From positions 408,739-472,738 of the forward strand of contig CBDFHB010000001.1 of the NCBI GenBank assembly GCA_965247365.1: DNA of 64,000 bases, read 5' to 3'. Below, in pieces: positions 21,873-29,348 of this stretch. The notes beneath the pieces are model-generated. The model saw only the letters and a list, made by a program, of their open reading frames with translations. It did no database searches and was not told the origin of the DNA. Positions within the stretch are counted from its first letter, which is position 1; each line of letters opens with the position of its first letter. The stretch is from Candidatus Marinacidobacterales bacterium. GTDB taxonomy: Bacteria; Acidobacteriota; Vicinamibacteria; Marinacidobacterales; SMYC01. Position numbers and translations under genes: made by a program.

Positions 21873-22511
21873 ATGGACGTGTTCCGTACCCATCCGGGAT
21901 GGCTGGAGGTCATTACCGGGAGCATGTTCAGTGGGAAGAGCGAAGAGTTGATTCGACGGCTGAGACGAGCTCAAATCGCCCGTCAGCGAGTCCAGATATT
22001 CAAACCGTTGATTGACGGCCGTTATGGCAAAGAGCATATCGTCTCCCACAGTGACATGAAGATCGACGCCGAGCTCGTCGAGCACGCGGAAGAGATTTTG
22101 GAAAAGCTCGACCACCGTACCGAAGTCGTCGGCATCGACGAGGGGCAGTTCTTCGAACCGAGTCTCGTCGAGGTGGCGGTCCAGCTGGCAAATACCGGCA
22201 AACGCGTGATCCTGGCGGGACTCGATACCGACTACCTGGGCAAGCCCTTCGACCCCATGCCCCAACTTCTCGCGGTTGCGGAGTACATCACAAAGACGCT
22301 GGCCATCTGCATGCGCTGCGGCAGCCCGGCCAATCAGACGCAGCGCATCGTCGCCTCCAAGGATCGCGTCGTCGTGGGTGGCGCCGAGACCTACGAGGCG
22401 CGATGCCGAAGGTGCTTCGAGCCCCACGTCGAGGAAGACCAGAAGCGCGACGCTCTCGCCCAGCTCGCAACCCGAAGGCGAGTGGCTTCGGGCGGAAGCT
22501 CGGAAAAGTAG
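21873..22511 (+). CDS. tdk: Thymidine kinase.
   Basis: [22 protein letters not shown]-loop, the CMRCG...CRRC zinc ribbon, and DEGQFF. The start lies 4 nt after the YjjX stop. Confidence 0.88.
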
Positions 22512-23323
22512 CGTCGCCGCATCCCGTCCACGACGAGGTTCGCGCCCACAACGGCGAGGGTCAGCGAAACCCCGGGGAAGAGCCACTCCCACCAGTAAGC
22601 GCCCAGGACTCCGGCGCTCGAGGCGGCCGCGGCCATCATATTCCCCCAGCTCGGCATCGGCTCGGGAAGCCCGAGCCCGAGAAACGACAGTGTCACTTCG
22701 CCGAGAAGAAAGTAGGGTAGAAGCAGCCCCACCTGGAGGAGCACGAAAGCTCTCAACGCAGGGAGGATGTGGGTCAAGAGCAGGCGGAAGCGCGTCGCTC
22801 CTGCCGCCCGGGCGGCGGTCACGAAGTCGCGCTCGCGCAACGACAGCACCTGGGCGCGAACCAGTCGCGCGATGGAGCTCCACCCGACGATTGCGAGAGT
22901 CAGAACAACGATACCGCCCGACTGGAACGACGAGAGTGCGTCGGGAAAAATGTTTCGGAGCGCGATCATGAGGTAGAGCGCGGGTAAGGTCATGAAGAGC
23001 TCGGCGCCACGCATCAGCAGTCGATCCGTCAGCCCCCCAAAGAGCCCGGAAACAGACCCTAGGAGCGTTCCCAGAAAGGCTGTGAGGAGAACACCAGCGG
23101 TAGCGGTCAACACGGTGTAGCGCGCCCCGTGCACGAGGCGCGACCACACGTCGCGGCCGAGCCCATCAGTTCCGAGCACGTGTCTTCCGTGCGCTCCCGA
23201 AAGGCCAAACGGAGGCTCGTGAACCCACTCCCGGTCTTGCTCGGTCGGCGAGTACCGAAGCAGGAAAGGTCCTGCCAGAGCGACGGCCGTGAGCAGGCAA
23301 AGAAGGACGAGTCCAACCCTCAT
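22391..23323 (-). CDS. ABC transporter permease, DppC/OppC-like.
   Basis: Binding-protein-dependent transport inner-membrane component with six TM helices. The start [11 protein letters not shown] at 23323 overlaps the upstream stop (ATGA). Confidence 0.85.
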
Positions 23324-24297
23324 GCGGGTTTCTCCTCGAGCCTGACGCGGGGATCTGCGGCCACCAGCAGGAGGTCCGAAGCCAGATTTCCAGCCACGAG
23401 GAGAAAAGAGGCGAAGACGAGCGTGCCCAGGAGGAGAAACGGGTCCCGATCGTGCATTGCCGTGATGGCGAGCCGTCCCATACCGGGCCAACCCGTGACG
23501 ACCTCGACGAGAAAGGCTCCGTTGAGAAGCCGCGCGATCGAAACGGATGCGTAGCCGAGCAACGGAACGAGCCCTGCTGGCAGGACATGCCGCCGGAGAA
23601 TCGCTCCACGGGAAACGCCAAGAGCGTCAGCAGCACGGACGAAGGGGGCGGCCAGAACCTCCGAGAACGCGCCCCTCGCCTGGAGAAAGAATCCGGGAAT
23701 CATGAAGGCGGTGAGTACTGCCGCCGGCAAGACGAGATGGCGCAGGAAGTCCATCCCGACAAACCACGGCGAGGACGACGCGGCTCCGGAGGCGGATCCC
23801 CCTCCGATGGGCAGAAGCCCCGTTGAGGCGGCAAAGGCGAGCCCCGCGAGCGAGAGCACGATGGGATGAACGGAGGCCAGAACGAGGGCTGTCCGGCACG
23901 CCCATCGGTCCCACCATCCGTCGAGCCGCCCGGCGGAGAGGAGTCCGAGCGCCACACCTATCCCCGCTCCGGCGAGCTGAGCGAGGGTGGCGAGCGCGAG
24001 GGTGCGGGGAACGGCCTCCCGAAGAAGCTCGACTACGGGACGTTGGTAGCTGAACGACAGCCCGAAGTCACCCGAGAGCGTTCCCGCGAGCCACGAGACG
24101 TATTGGACGTGCCAGGGGCGGTCGAGCCCATAGCGTCTCTCGAGTACTTCGAGGACGCTCTCCGAGATTCCGGGATGGAAGCGCAGCTGATCGACAACAG
24201 TGCCTGGGGAGGCGTGCAAGAGTACGAAAGAGAGGAAACTCGCGGCGAGAAGGAGCAGGGCCGCCATGGCCACGCGAGTGTAAATGACGCGAGCCAT
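23320..24297 (-). CDS. ABC transporter permease, DppB/OppB-like.
   Basis: Typical DppB N-terminus MARVIYTRVAMAALLLL...LRFHPG... and the conserved permease loop. Confidence 0.85.
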   Translation of the reverse strand: MARVIYTRVAMAALLLLAASFLSFVLLHASPGTVVDQLRFHPGISESVLEVLERRYGLDRPWHVQYVSWLAGTLSGDFGLSFSYQRPVVELLREAVPRTLALATLAQLAGAGIGVALGLLSAGRLDGWWDRWACRTALVLASVHPIVLSLAGLAFAASTGLLPIGGGSASGAASSSPWFVGMDFLRHLVLPAAVLTAFMIPGFFLQARGAFSEVLAAPFVRAADALGVSRGAILRRHVLPAGLVPLLGYASVSIARLLNGAFLVEVVTGWPGMGRLAITAMHDRDPFLLLGTLVFASFLLVAGNLASDLLLVAADPRVRLEEKPA

Positions 24298-27216: not shown

Positions 27217-27650
27217 GATGCACTCCTTCATTATTTCGATTAAATGAAAATTACAGTACTACTCAAATCGAAAACATCATACCCAGAGAATGCCTTGCAT
27301 TGGTACCTCCTTGGCTGCGAATCCCAAGGCGCGGAACGGGCCGAACCGCACGCCGAGACTTCTGTCAGATATTTTGAGAGATTTGGTTAGGACTTAGGCG
27401 GTCGAGGAAGGGGTCGGTCTGGCAGAGACCAGAGTCATAACAAAAGAAAGAATGAGAATAGAATCACATCCCGCGAAAGCCGTCTGCCTTGGGACCGTCC
27501 CTACATCTTCCGTTTCCCGTTGCACCTCCTTTGGCGCCGTGGGCTTTCGACTACCACCCACGGTGGCTAAGCTTGTCGGTTTCTTGCTTCGCAAACTACC
27601 CTCGTCGTCCTGAGGATTCAGTGATGTGCGTCACGGGGTTTACCTAAAGG

Positions 27651-29348
27651 TCAATTTCCCCCCAGCCCGGCGGAAAGCTCGTAACTATTCCATAAAGCGT
27701 GGGTAAACGGACTCGGTTGCAAGTTCCGAACTCTCTCGTGAGCCCCCAGGAGCGCGTGCGGCACGACGAGATCGATGACGGGAAGCTGCTCCGCCACGAT
27801 GGTCTGGACCTCGTCGAAGCAAGCTTTCCGGTGCCCGGGATCGAGCGAGCGCATTTGCGCCGTCATGAGCTCGTCGATGCGGGCCTCCCACTCCGTTGCC
27901 GGCGCGGACTGAGATGGATGCCACAGGTGAAGAGACGCGTGGCTCATCCAAAACGCTATCTCGGCGGAAGGGTCCGGATCGGTCGGGGTGATGCCGAGCA
28001 GGGCTGCGTCGTAATCGAAGCTCCCGGTGAGCCGGGCGAGCAGGCTGCTCCCCTCGACGGGACGCGTATGCGCCTGGATTCCGAGGGCAAACAAGTCTTC
28101 CTGGATGAAAGCACCGACGCTTCGGGCGTGGTCCTGGGTCGCGCTGGTGATGATGTCGAAGCGCACGAGTGTTCCCGCCGAATCGACCAGGTGACCGTCT
28201 TCGTCCCAACGAAAGCCCGCCTCTACGAGAAGCTCCCGCGCGCGATCGACGTCGCGCTCGACTGGGGCGAGCGAGGCGTTCTTCCAGAAAGTATTTGCCG
28301 GAGACACCGGCCCCGCCGCAGGCGTCGCGAGCCCCGAATAGACGACGCGGGCCATTCCCGCGCGATCGATCGATAGCGAGACGGCGCGGCGAAACCGCAC
28401 GTCCGTGAACCATCGCTTCTTGTGCTCTTCGATCGGGCTCGCGGGATTCAAGTTGAACCATAGCCTCTCGGAGCGCATGCCGGGCCCGGCATCGATGAGA
28501 CGGAGGGCCTTGCTTTCGGCATGAGCGAGCGCCCCGAAGGCTTCGGCGGCCAAAGGCTCGAGGAGGTCGATGTCTCCCGAGCGAAGCCGGAGGACGCGAG
28601 CGCTACCATCGGGCACGACCTCGAAAACGATCGAGGACAATCTCGGGAAAACCTCCGCCCCGTCGCCAGTTCTCCAATAGAACGGGTTTCGCTCGAGGAC
28701 GATGCGCTGACCCGGCACGTGCTCCCGAAGTCGGAAAGGGCCGAGACCGACGACGTTCTCGGGGGGCGCACCGAGGCCGGTATCGGCGGCAAGTGTGCCC
28801 CGGTCGAGACTCGCCCGGAGTCGATGCTCGGGCAGAATGCGAATACTGTCGAAAACTCGCTCGACGGTCGCCGTCAGCCTCGGAAGCCGGAGGGCTACCG
28901 TCGCAGCATCGAGGACTTCAGGAACGAAAGGTTTGCCGTCGAGCTGCACCGTCTCCGTGAGTTGGCTCGCCGTGCTCTCGTCGTGGAGCACGCGAAAAGT
29001 GAAAGCGACGTCCTCCGCGGTGAAAGGCTCTCCGTCCGAGAACCTCAAACCCGCTCGCAAGTGAAACACGATGCGAGCGCCCGAATCGTCCTTTACGATC
29101 TCCCACGACTCGGCCAGCGCGGGCTCCATCTGCTGCGTCCGCGGATTCAGACGGATCAGGGGCGCGTGAAGCTGATCGGTGACGACGTGGGTCACGTGAT
29201 CGGAGGCGAGTAAACGATTCCAGGTCTGTGGCTCCATGGGGATTGCGACTCGGAGCACGCCTTCGGGCAAGGCCGAGCCCCGCTCTCCCGAACCGCAGCC
29301 CACGCCAGCGAAAAGACATACAGACAGAAGACAGAAGCGCCGCCGCAA
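27651..29348 (-). CDS. ABC transporter substrate-binding protein, family 5 (oligopeptide/dipeptide/nickel, DppA/OppA-like).
   Basis: Signal peptide MRRRFCLLSVCLFAGVGC and an SBP_bac_5 fold of about 565 aa. Confidence 0.85.
   Translation of the reverse strand: MRRRFCLLSVCLFAGVGCGSGERGSALPEGVLRVAIPMEPQTWNRLLASDHVTHVVTDQLHAPLIRLNPRTQQMEPALAESWEIVKDDSGARIVFHLRAGLRFSDGEPFTAEDVAFTFRVLHDESTASQLTETVQLDGKPFVPEVLDAATVALRLPRLTATVERVFDSIRILPEHRLRASLDRGTLAADTGLGAPPENVVGLGPFRLREHVPGQRIVLERNPFYWRTGDGAEVFPRLSSIVFEVVPDGSARVLRLRSGDIDLLEPLAAEAFGALAHAESKALRLIDAGPGMRSERLWFNLNPASPIEEHKKRWFTDVRFRRAVSLSIDRAGMARVVYSGLATPAAGPVSPANTFWKNASLAPVERDVDRARELLVEAGFRWDEDGHLVDSAGTLVRFDIITSATQDHARSVGAFIQEDLFALGIQAHTRPVEGSSLLARLTGSFDYDAALLGITPTDPDPSAEIAFWMSHASLHLWHPSQSAPATEWEARIDELMTAQMRSLDPGHRKACFDEVQTIVAEQLPVIDLVVPHALLGAHERVRNLQPSPFTHALWNSYELSAGLGGN

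Follow-up and report, generated by a model that had tools for sequence, protein, structure and literature searches.

In a 64-kb stretch of DNA from Candidatus Marinacidobacterales bacterium, referred to here as the window, the gene for a membrane-bound enzyme of cyclic di-GMP (c-di-GMP) turnover stands among the genes of a peptide-type ATP-binding cassette (ABC) system, namely a family-5 solute-binding protein (SBP) and the permeases DppB and DppC. A functional tie between the family-5 binding-protein system and the c-di-GMP enzyme is well supported by the gene neighbourhoods of related bacteria. Two small open reading frames (ORFs), a mini-ORF and a gene for a peptide of a ~30-amino acid (aa) family, lie between the SBP and enzyme genes. 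The locus is read, tentatively, as encoding a co-sensing complex in which the SBP would report through DppBC and/or the MASE9-like membrane domain of the enzyme to its c-di-GMP domains, with the hydrophobic tail of the small peptide as the candidate ligand.

Orthologous loci in the Vicinamibacteria were reached either via the enzyme (L081-L089) or via the small peptide alone, a route that is unbiased for the enzyme (eight loci, L091-L098). The order in all of the ~13 lineages is hem genes and ccsA, SBP, mini-ORF, peptide, enzyme, (DppB, DppC) and the thymidine kinase gene tk. Outside the Vicinamibacteria, ten Terriglobia/Bryobacterales loci (L013, L017, L020, L027, L029, L032, L033, L034, L048 and L055) contain, all on one strand, an enzyme gene that adjoins those for DppB, DppC, a family-5 SBP (SBP5) and one ABC_tran/oligo_HPY ATPase, the enzymes being ~28-39 % identical to the window or L029 protein. 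The enzyme gene is first in most of these loci and last in L032, L017 has no SBP match, the L048 contig stops inside DppB, and in L029 the neighbouring ORFs abut or overlap by a few bases. Of two Gemmatimonadota loci, L068 (1..5541) has SBP5, DppB and DppC followed by an HD-GYP/GGDEF gene and lacks an ATPase over 13.7 kb, and L065 (7818..12168) has a sigma54 activator, a TPR-HD-GYP protein and SBP5.

The adjacency is thus found in four gene orders, in at least two acidobacterial classes and one Gemmatimonadota locus, and because it persists through these orders the linkage is probably under selection. In the favoured reading the locus is the form that an old module of the Acidobacteriota takes in the Vicinamibacteria. 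The profile scan of genome contigs with the enzyme alignment gave, among the matches listed, homologues of no more than 40 % identity, close orthologues being fetched singly, and the neighbour-joining tree of the homologues is too crude to separate ancestral linkage from repeated gain. The original prediction had made the linkage depend on homologues of the enzyme co-occurring with Dpp-like genes elsewhere, and such co-occurrence is found in the Vicinamibacteria, the Terriglobia/Bryobacterales and the Gemmatimonadota. Its further suggestion of a transporter gated by the signalling protein gained no support.

In the favoured reading the locus would work mainly as a sensor that links the binding-protein system to c-di-GMP turnover. 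The SBP would capture a hydrophobic oligopeptide outside the cell, and its signal would pass via DppB/DppC and/or directly to the intramembrane MASE9 domain, shifting the enzyme between c-di-GMP synthesis at the AGDEF site and breakdown by the HD-GYP domain, with the GAF domain as a second, cytoplasmic input. More speculatively, the ligand could be the hydrophobic tail that processing would release from the neighbouring ~30-aa peptide, acting as an autocrine or kin-specific signal, and the mini-ORF (MxGILWV) may control expression of the peptide or supply a second one. All SBP orthologues carry an N-terminal signal sequence ending in Cys and the protein is probably exported and of the lipoprotein type; its nearest solved relatives are the oligopeptide/dipeptide binders AppA, DppA and HbpA, and both points lend support to co-sensing. 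The tail is a candidate ligand because, as a hydrophobic segment of usually 5 aa, it has a size and chemistry suited to Opp-type binders.

The features of the locus are collected in the table. The gene order, domains and junctions given in the original prediction are confirmed by ORF calls, Pfam and reading of the sequence. The enzyme gene ends in TAG, followed by a 14-nucleotide (nt) spacer and the DppB ATG, and DppB and DppC share a 4-nt ATGA overlap; on account of these two junctions the proposed co-transcription of enzyme, DppB and DppC is plausible. What had been passed over as an empty gap between SBP and enzyme contains the two conserved small peptide genes. The codon usage of SBP, enzyme, DppB and DppC is native, with a GC content at third codon positions (GC3) of 0.74-0.79 (DppB 0.74).

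Features of the locus within the 64-kb window, on the minus strand unless marked otherwise; aa numbers refer to the enzyme
Feature	Position	Strand	Basis or remark
Family-5 (Opp/Dpp/Nik-type) solute-binding protein, SBP_bac_5, probably lipoprotein	27651..29348	-	Pfam SBP_bac_5, E 5e-71
SBP-to-enzyme gap, 831 nt	26820..27650	-	Two small ORFs and hairpin inside
Mini-ORF MQGILWV-stop, 7 codons	27277..27300	-	Shine-Dalgarno AAGGAGGT at 27312..27305
Small peptide gene, 43 aa, MENVQ(EIK)4EIEELTVEELEERTAPG-VIINFGHSP	27085..27216	-	Conserved in all orthologous loci
9-nt tandem repeat GAAATCAAG x4, adds EIK repeats to leader	27166..27201	-	Sequence reading
Hairpin GGAGACC-ACTGGGGAGC-GGTCTCC with T/C-rich tract, terminator-like	27013..27036	-	Consensus scan
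MASE9-like/HD-GYP/GAF/GGDEF enzyme, 835 aa	24312..26819	-	Pfam domains and N-terminal profile comparison
MASE9-like integral membrane sensor domain, aa 1-240	26100..26819	-	hhalign to MASE9-annotated homologues
HD-GYP phosphodiesterase domain, aa 278-430	25530..25988	-	Pfam HD_5, E 2e-39
GAF domain, aa 502-638	24906..25316	-	Pfam GAF_3/GAF_2/GAF
GGDEF domain, AGDEF active site and RxxD I-site, aa 651-807	24399..24869	-	Pfam GGDEF, E 6.5e-41
DppB/OppB-like ABC permease	23320..24297	-	Pfam BPD_transp_1 and BPD_transp_1_N
DppC/OppC-like ABC permease	22391..23323	-	Pfam BPD_transp_1 and OppC_N
Thymidine kinase (tk)	21816..22511	+	Converges on DppC

Its homologues assign the window to the Vicinamibacteria (Acidobacteriota). 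The orthologues of the enzyme range from 96 % down to 56 % identity to the window protein, after which the identity of homologues falls to 38 % or less. The membrane domain had been taken for a seven-transmembrane sensor of the 7TMR type. In a domain search the HD-GYP, GAF and GGDEF domains are recovered, whereas the 7TMR-type domain is not. Residues 1-240 give no direct Pfam match, being too divergent for the PF20972 (MASE9) model, and a profile of the orthologues aligns with the N-termini of PF20972-annotated homologues with an hhalign probability of 99.5 % (E 3.6e-22). PF20972 is carried by a 64 %-identical orthologue (P0029), and the L029 enzyme matches Pfam MASE9 below threshold. By hydropathy, aa 10 to 239 contain ~7-8 hydrophobic segments joined by short loops. 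This fits the MASE9 domain as defined in the sections of Galperin & Chou (bioRxiv 10.1101/2021.11.05.467447) covered here, with ~8 transmembrane segments, two of them short, and short periplasmic loops; the same sections propose that ligands are bound within the membrane. By these comparisons the membrane domain appears to be a divergent MASE9 and not of the 7TMR type.

The catalytic motifs of the enzyme were examined in an alignment of 17 homologues. HDVGK, HHENWDGSGYP and RDAD-VLVRY-AGDEF are intact and conserved, so that the degeneracy which the original prediction had named as a danger to its reading is not seen on alignment, and the AGDEF variant with its intact RxxD I-site is borne out. 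In the HD-GYP domain H280, H313/D314, H342, H366/H367, E368, D371, G372, G374-Y375-P376 and D395 are invariant or nearly so. Residue-by-residue alignment with PmGH (4mcw), PA4781 (4r8z) and V-cGAP3 (5z7c) indicates that the metal ligands are conserved apart from the first Glu, in whose place stands His; among PDB sequences the domain is matched best by V-cGAP3 5z7c, which is specific for cyclic GMP-AMP. A His-rich stretch, ELHTDFKHHTHTHIQR (aa ~268-282; 25950..26010, minus strand), surrounds this first ligand in the Vicinamibacteria clade only.

In the GGDEF domain D689, D691, F693, K694, N697, D698, G701, H702, G705, R728 and D732-E733-F734 are invariant (DxDxFKxxND...GHxxGD). AGDEF is fixed in all Vicinamibacteria orthologues, with GGDEF in distant homologues, and the RxxD I-site, which lies five residues upstream and reads RDAD here and RDSD in relatives, is fixed across the orthologue clade. 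The AGDEF cyclase VCA0965 is active (PMC3974145), and the AGDEF domain of NbdA has been described as degenerate. The enzyme is probably bifunctional, with intact hydrolase motifs and near-canonical cyclase motifs; both activities are plausible because the HD-GYP ligands are kept, the first Glu excepted, and because an AGDEF cyclase is known to be active.

The SBP and the two permeases with EAA loops are what a type-I ABC importer of the Opp/Dpp/Nik kind requires, and the cognate ATPase is absent at this locus, although present as a single gene in the Terriglobia-type operons. A six-frame search of the window for LSGGQ and Walker A motifs found no ABC ATPase, the sole P-loop proteins being ClpB and an Mrp-like protein, and tblastn of the window with the Dpp-type ATPase of a related operon gave no match. 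No ATPase is encoded within ±8-10 kb of any orthologous locus in the ~13 Vicinamibacteria lineages. The absence of DppD/DppF genes beside the operon, where tk is found instead on the opposite strand, thus holds for the whole window and for the orthologous Vicinamibacteria loci. Because homologous operons in other Acidobacteriota carry one ATPase, the ATPase-less state is most simply read as derived, the loss being specific to the Vicinamibacteria version.

It has to be considered whether the locus still encodes a working importer of a peptide or another family-5 substrate, served by an ATPase encoded elsewhere, in which case the enzyme would read the flux in the manner of a trigger transporter, or the imported compound via its GAF domain, and the small ORFs would be unrelated to the transporter. 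It is well established that several ABC importers can share an ATPase, as with MsiK and MsmK. The Terriglobia operon, which looks ancestral, is complete with one ABC_tran/oligo_HPY ATPase and has tight or overlapping junctions, and the EAA-type (ATPase-docking) loops of DppB and DppC are retained in the ATPase-less class, as would be expected of an importer. Set against this are the ~13 Vicinamibacteria lineages without an adjoining ATPase.

The way in which the transporter genes evolve bears on both sides of the same question. Between the window and L086 the rate of non-synonymous substitution (dN) is 0.108 for the enzyme, 0.133 for tk and 0.144 for ccsA, and 0.380, 0.376 and 0.381 for SBP, DppB and DppC respectively, so that these three genes evolve ~3x faster than the enzyme and the neighbouring housekeeping genes. 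The ratio of dN to synonymous substitution (dN/dS) in this pair is 0.24-0.32 for SBP, DppB and DppC (DppB ~0.24, DppC ~0.29), and 0.15-0.35 wherever the genes are kept, with normal GC3; since dS is saturated at >1, these ratios are rough. SBP, DppB and DppC nonetheless appear clearly to be under purifying selection where they are kept, as working genes and not pseudogenes. For an importer with a distant ATPase this selection on the permeases is a favourable sign, whereas the faster evolution of the transporter genes, and the repeated loss of permeases while SBP and enzyme stayed, are not, and such an importer is rather unlikely. The SBP and the MASE9 domain are the fastest-evolving parts of the locus, as would be expected of parts that track a variable ligand.

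Loss of the binding-protein system is frequent among close relatives. L081/L082 and L094/L095 have clean deletions of DppB and DppC, with the enzyme stop ~130 nt or less from tk (3 nt in L094/L095). In L083/L084, L087 and L089 DppC, DppB or both are in fragments, although the L089 enzyme is only 4 % diverged from that of the window. The SBP gene is split, truncated or interrupted by an insertion sequence (IS) in L084, L087, L089 and L095. Part of the fragmentation could be indel error in low-coverage long-read assemblies (_3x, _8x and _9x in the contig names), and the calls of loss rest on clean deletions, IS insertions and fragmentation in independent assemblies. The interval from ccsA to the enzyme, in which the SBP gene lies, is a recurrent target of IS elements and transposases (DDE_Tnp_1, Transposase_mut, UPF0236 and rve in L083/L084, L087, L089, L093 and L095), and the L093 enzyme is a 180-aa GGDEF remnant.

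On present comparisons the two small ORFs are the most constant partners of the enzyme. A profile search with the peptide, taken to E 10, gave 3,661 candidates; the best 120 of these (P0121-P0240) all have E <1e-9 and are unannotated peptides, mostly of exactly 30 aa, and the family as a whole numbers in the hundreds. Each consists of a near-invariant acidic leader, EIVELTVEELEER[TS]APG (EIVELTVEELEERTAPG), and a hypervariable, uncharged hydrophobic tail. The leader has a dN/dS of ~0.075 with third-position variation in 16 of its 17 codons. Among the best 120 of the 3,661 matches there are 78 distinct tails, 85 % of them 5 aa long within a range of 4 to 9 aa, with Ile, Leu, Val or Met at position 1 in 94 % and Ile or Val at position 2 in 97 %; W, Y, F, C, N and G also occur. 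The peptide of the window is atypical in its EIK repeats and 9-aa tail. The peptides of the closest relatives (P0131, L089) lack the repeat, which is therefore a recent expansion of the slippage type and may differ among strains.

Such a conserved leader with a hypervariable core, in multiple copies, is what a leader-dependent precursor of a secreted peptide (RiPP or GG-leader pheromone) would have. In L085 (8973..9600) the peptide gene occurs as a tandem array of four, each copy with a start site of its own, spaced at 130 nt and flanked on both sides by copies of the mini-ORF, MKGIVWI and MNRGIVWI. In every locus that the peptide-anchored look-ups showed, the peptide stands in the Vicinamibacteria gene order given above, and it was found only there. 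Neither small peptide matches a family or a precursor family in Pfam or NCBIfam, a full-text literature search with the leader motif found no paper, and no described counterpart of the peptide and mini-ORF could be found. One metagenome profile-scan match obtained with the peptide alignment (L090) was discarded as a large unrelated protein.

The mini-ORF reads M-x(1-2)-G-[IV]-[LIV]-W-[VI]-stop in every Vicinamibacteria locus examined and sometimes occurs twice, before and after the peptide gene. Its motif is absent from the remaining window and from 80 other loci (~1.5 Mb searched). The codons for G-I-L-W-V vary at position 3 in four sites and at position 1 in three sites, but not at position 2. 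Each of the three stop codons occurs among the loci; L081 has lost its stop, and the ORF there extends to 26 aa. The mini-ORF could be an arrest or regulatory upstream ORF, or encode a second peptide. Its product resembles the local tail in L085 (GIVWI vs IVWGG) and in L088 (GIIWV vs VIIWG).

The same region can also be seen as a leader. Here the transporter would be a relic heading for loss and the enzyme would act alone through MASE9 and GAF, while the mini-ORF and the ~30-aa ORF would be cis-acting leader peptides whose stalling or arrest controls read-through of the hairpin, and so expression of the enzyme and DppBC, according to amino-acid supply. The layout is suggestive: a Shine-Dalgarno sequence with the mini-ORF, an AT-rich spacer, a Shine-Dalgarno sequence with the small ORF, the hairpin with its T/C tract, about 190 nt and then the enzyme gene. 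The ORF before the terminator-like hairpin has two to three terminal Ile/Val codons and the best 120 peptides share the aliphatic bias at tail positions 1 and 2. Moreover, the conserved block lies ~6-22 residues before the stop, and in arrest peptides a stretch in this position would sit in the ribosomal exit tunnel while the final codons are being read. About half of the lineages have lost or broken transporter genes, and the minimal set in degraded loci is the two small ORFs with the enzyme.

The RNA itself offers less to this idea. The hairpin sequence is kept in most orthologous loci, with a different hairpin at the same place in L097, yet no alternative pairing was detected. With RNAalifold, nothing conserved in structure emerged upstream of the mini-ORF, and downstream of the peptide gene the hairpin alone did. 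A candidate antiterminator, a CCCCAG pairing with the hairpin loop, was dropped when it proved not to be conserved in the L086 sequence. An Rfam search of 21-31 kb of the window found no riboswitch or known RNA, its sole match being a chance snoRNA (E 0.12). Furthermore, classical attenuators are not conserved outside their regulatory codons, whereas here 17 residues are nearly invariant at the low dN/dS of the leader; the four tandem copies of L085 with their own start sites, the W, Y, F, C, N and G residues of tails that vary in length, and the purifying selection on DppB and DppC where present also sit badly with it. This reading of a relic transporter with control by leader peptides is unlikely.

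A different role for the peptide is that of an internal small-protein partner of the enzyme. The tail would enter the MASE9 pocket from inside, with the acidic helix remaining cytoplasmic, and would tune the balance of cyclase and hydrolase, like small-protein regulators of membrane sensors, the SBP and DppBC being an optional independent input. Peptide and enzyme are a strictly co-retained pair, the peptide has no export signal and no exporter lies nearby. MASE9 is moreover the most variable part of the enzyme, in parallel to the variable tail, and binding of ligands inside the membrane is what the covered sections of Galperin & Chou (10.1101/2021.11.05.467447) propose for this domain. A tail of 5 residues is, however, very short for a membrane anchor, 78 tails among the best 120 of 3,661 peptides are more typical of secreted signals or toxins, and the tandem amplification in L085 is left unexplained. 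Such an internal partnership is quite improbable.

The co-sensing complex is favoured over these alternatives, and several observations weigh against it. The short periplasmic loops of MASE9 leave the SBP little surface on which to dock, which makes a path from SBP to MASE9 structurally awkward. Since the 64 kb contain no ATPase, transport of any kind would depend on a distant one, and the conserved EAA loops are more in keeping with a genuine importer than with a scaffold that only signals. Loci in which DppB/DppC are deleted or the SBP is broken still have the enzyme and both small ORFs. Because several close relatives have kept the enzyme while losing or breaking the binding-protein system, this system is evidently accessory and dispensable, and neither the enzyme nor the peptides require it. 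The peptide lacks a signal sequence and, at the proposed cleavage site, the canonical double glycine, having PG, AG or PA in its place, and no exporter, protease or maturase was found in the window or in any related locus; this lack of nearby processing and export genes is the weakest point of the idea of a secreted signal. All of the evidence is sequence-based.

A stronger form of the co-sensing reading treats the locus as a pherotype circuit, in which a strain-variable hydrophobic pentapeptide, cut behind the invariant leader from a ~30-aa precursor of ribosomal origin, would be read outside the cell by the Opp-type lipoprotein and its signal converted directly by the ATPase-less DppBC/MASE9 assembly to c-di-GMP, the importer having turned scaffold and MxGILWV acting as a built-in control or competitor. 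This form is doubtful and is put forward as a speculation.

With regard to known systems, the enzyme alone is a new member of a described architecture. Galperin & Chou's MASE9-HD-GYP-GAF-GGDEF proteins (10.1101/2021.11.05.467447), as far as the sections covered describe them, have the same domain order, a homologous membrane domain and intact HD-GYP motifs; the enzyme of the window differs in a MASE9 beyond the reach of the Pfam model, AGDEF in place of GGDEF and the His-rich stretch at the first ligand. Those sections of the paper mention no link to ABC-transporter or small-peptide genes.

Closest in working principle are NspS-MbaA of Vibrio cholerae (PMC8967002, PMC8079147) and PruR-DcpA of Agrobacterium (PMC11194511). 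In both, the gene for a periplasmic binding protein adjoins that for a bifunctional membrane c-di-GMP enzyme, and the binding protein senses its ligand without transport (PMC8967002, PMC8079147, PMC11194511). The enzymes there are of the GGDEF-EAL type with a real periplasmic docking domain, the ligands are polyamines or pterins and there are no permease genes (PMC8967002, PMC8079147, PMC11194511). The present locus has in common with them an SBP gene beside a membrane c-di-GMP enzyme and lacks a sizeable periplasmic docking domain; it differs in an HD-GYP/GGDEF enzyme with a membrane-embedded MASE9, a family-5 peptide-type SBP, two putatively co-transcribed permeases and two peptide genes.

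The likeness to Opp/Dpp/Nik type-I importers lies in the family-5 SBP, the two BPD_transp_1 permeases with EAA loops, the DppB-DppC order and the translational coupling. Unlike these importers, the locus has no DppD/DppF ATPase and its SBP gene is parted from the permeases by the enzyme and peptide genes, and in the related Terriglobia operons one ATPase takes the place of two. In co-sensing trigger transporters such as BceAB-BceS, transporter subunits serve as the input device of a signalling protein. The Opp-dependent pheromones of Firmicutes (RRNPP; GG-leader, ComC) are cell-cell signals read by Opp-type binders, and the likeness would lie in short hydrophobic ribosomal peptides whose leader is conserved and whose mature part varies. 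Both kinds of system have ATPases and use histidine kinases or cytoplasmic receptors and not c-di-GMP enzymes; here, in contrast, there is a c-di-GMP enzyme, no exporter or protease was found, and the site is PG/AG/PA and not GG.

Leader attenuators and arrest peptides (ilvL/ivbL, TnaC, SecM and the Erm leaders) are very short translated ORFs upstream of a regulated gene. The window resembles them in that one ORF ends rich in Ile/Val before a terminator-like hairpin and the mini-ORF has an invariant C-terminal motif beside its stop. It differs in that no antiterminator was found, the leader is highly conserved and the ORF is tandemly amplified in one lineage. The likeness to known arrest motifs is only loose (R-x-A-P-G in the peptide, R-A-G-P in SecM).

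Some features of the surroundings may be added. Upstream of SBP lie divergent ccsA-like and hemA genes, and at the other end DppC and tk are convergent and share 121 nt (22391..22511), so that the last ~40 DppC codons run antisense through the 3' end of tk. The C-terminal tail of DppC is kept among relatives, apparently because of this antisense reading. The ORFs at 17218..19107 (plus strand) and 15528..16937 (minus strand) are probably, by synteny with related loci, Ku and ATP-dependent DNA ligase (a non-homologous end-joining pair) and a REC-sigma54 activator. In Terriglobia-type loci an S8 subtilase often flanks the transporter-linked enzyme genes, and in L029 (5721..9904) the neighbouring divergent gene encodes a sigma54 activator (PAS-AAA-HTH) that carries a PilZ domain at its C-terminus and is possibly responsive to c-di-GMP; related sigma54 activators recur near other enzyme homologues. 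These neighbours hint at a theme of protein degradation, peptide uptake and c-di-GMP. No S8 protease homologue was found in the window, and a search for the PilZ-sigma54 activator gave generic sigma54 activators only.

To our knowledge, the signals of most c-di-GMP enzymes are unknown, abundant as these enzymes are, and MASE9 is without a known ligand. The locus offers a concrete and testable input for a MASE9 enzyme, in the form of a peptide-type SBP with its permeases plus a candidate ligand encoded in cis, within a system that is conserved across many uncultured soil Acidobacteriota. It appears, moreover, to show an ABC importer losing its motor while the membrane and binding subunits stay under selection, which bears on the change from transporter to sensor. 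Whichever mechanism holds, the ~30-aa peptides, a large family without annotation whose tails are hypervariable, and the seven-codon ORF, conserved at the amino-acid level, would each be a new regulatory or signalling element. If true, the pherotype circuit would amount to a chromosomal peptide-signalling circuit in a Gram-negative soil phylum.

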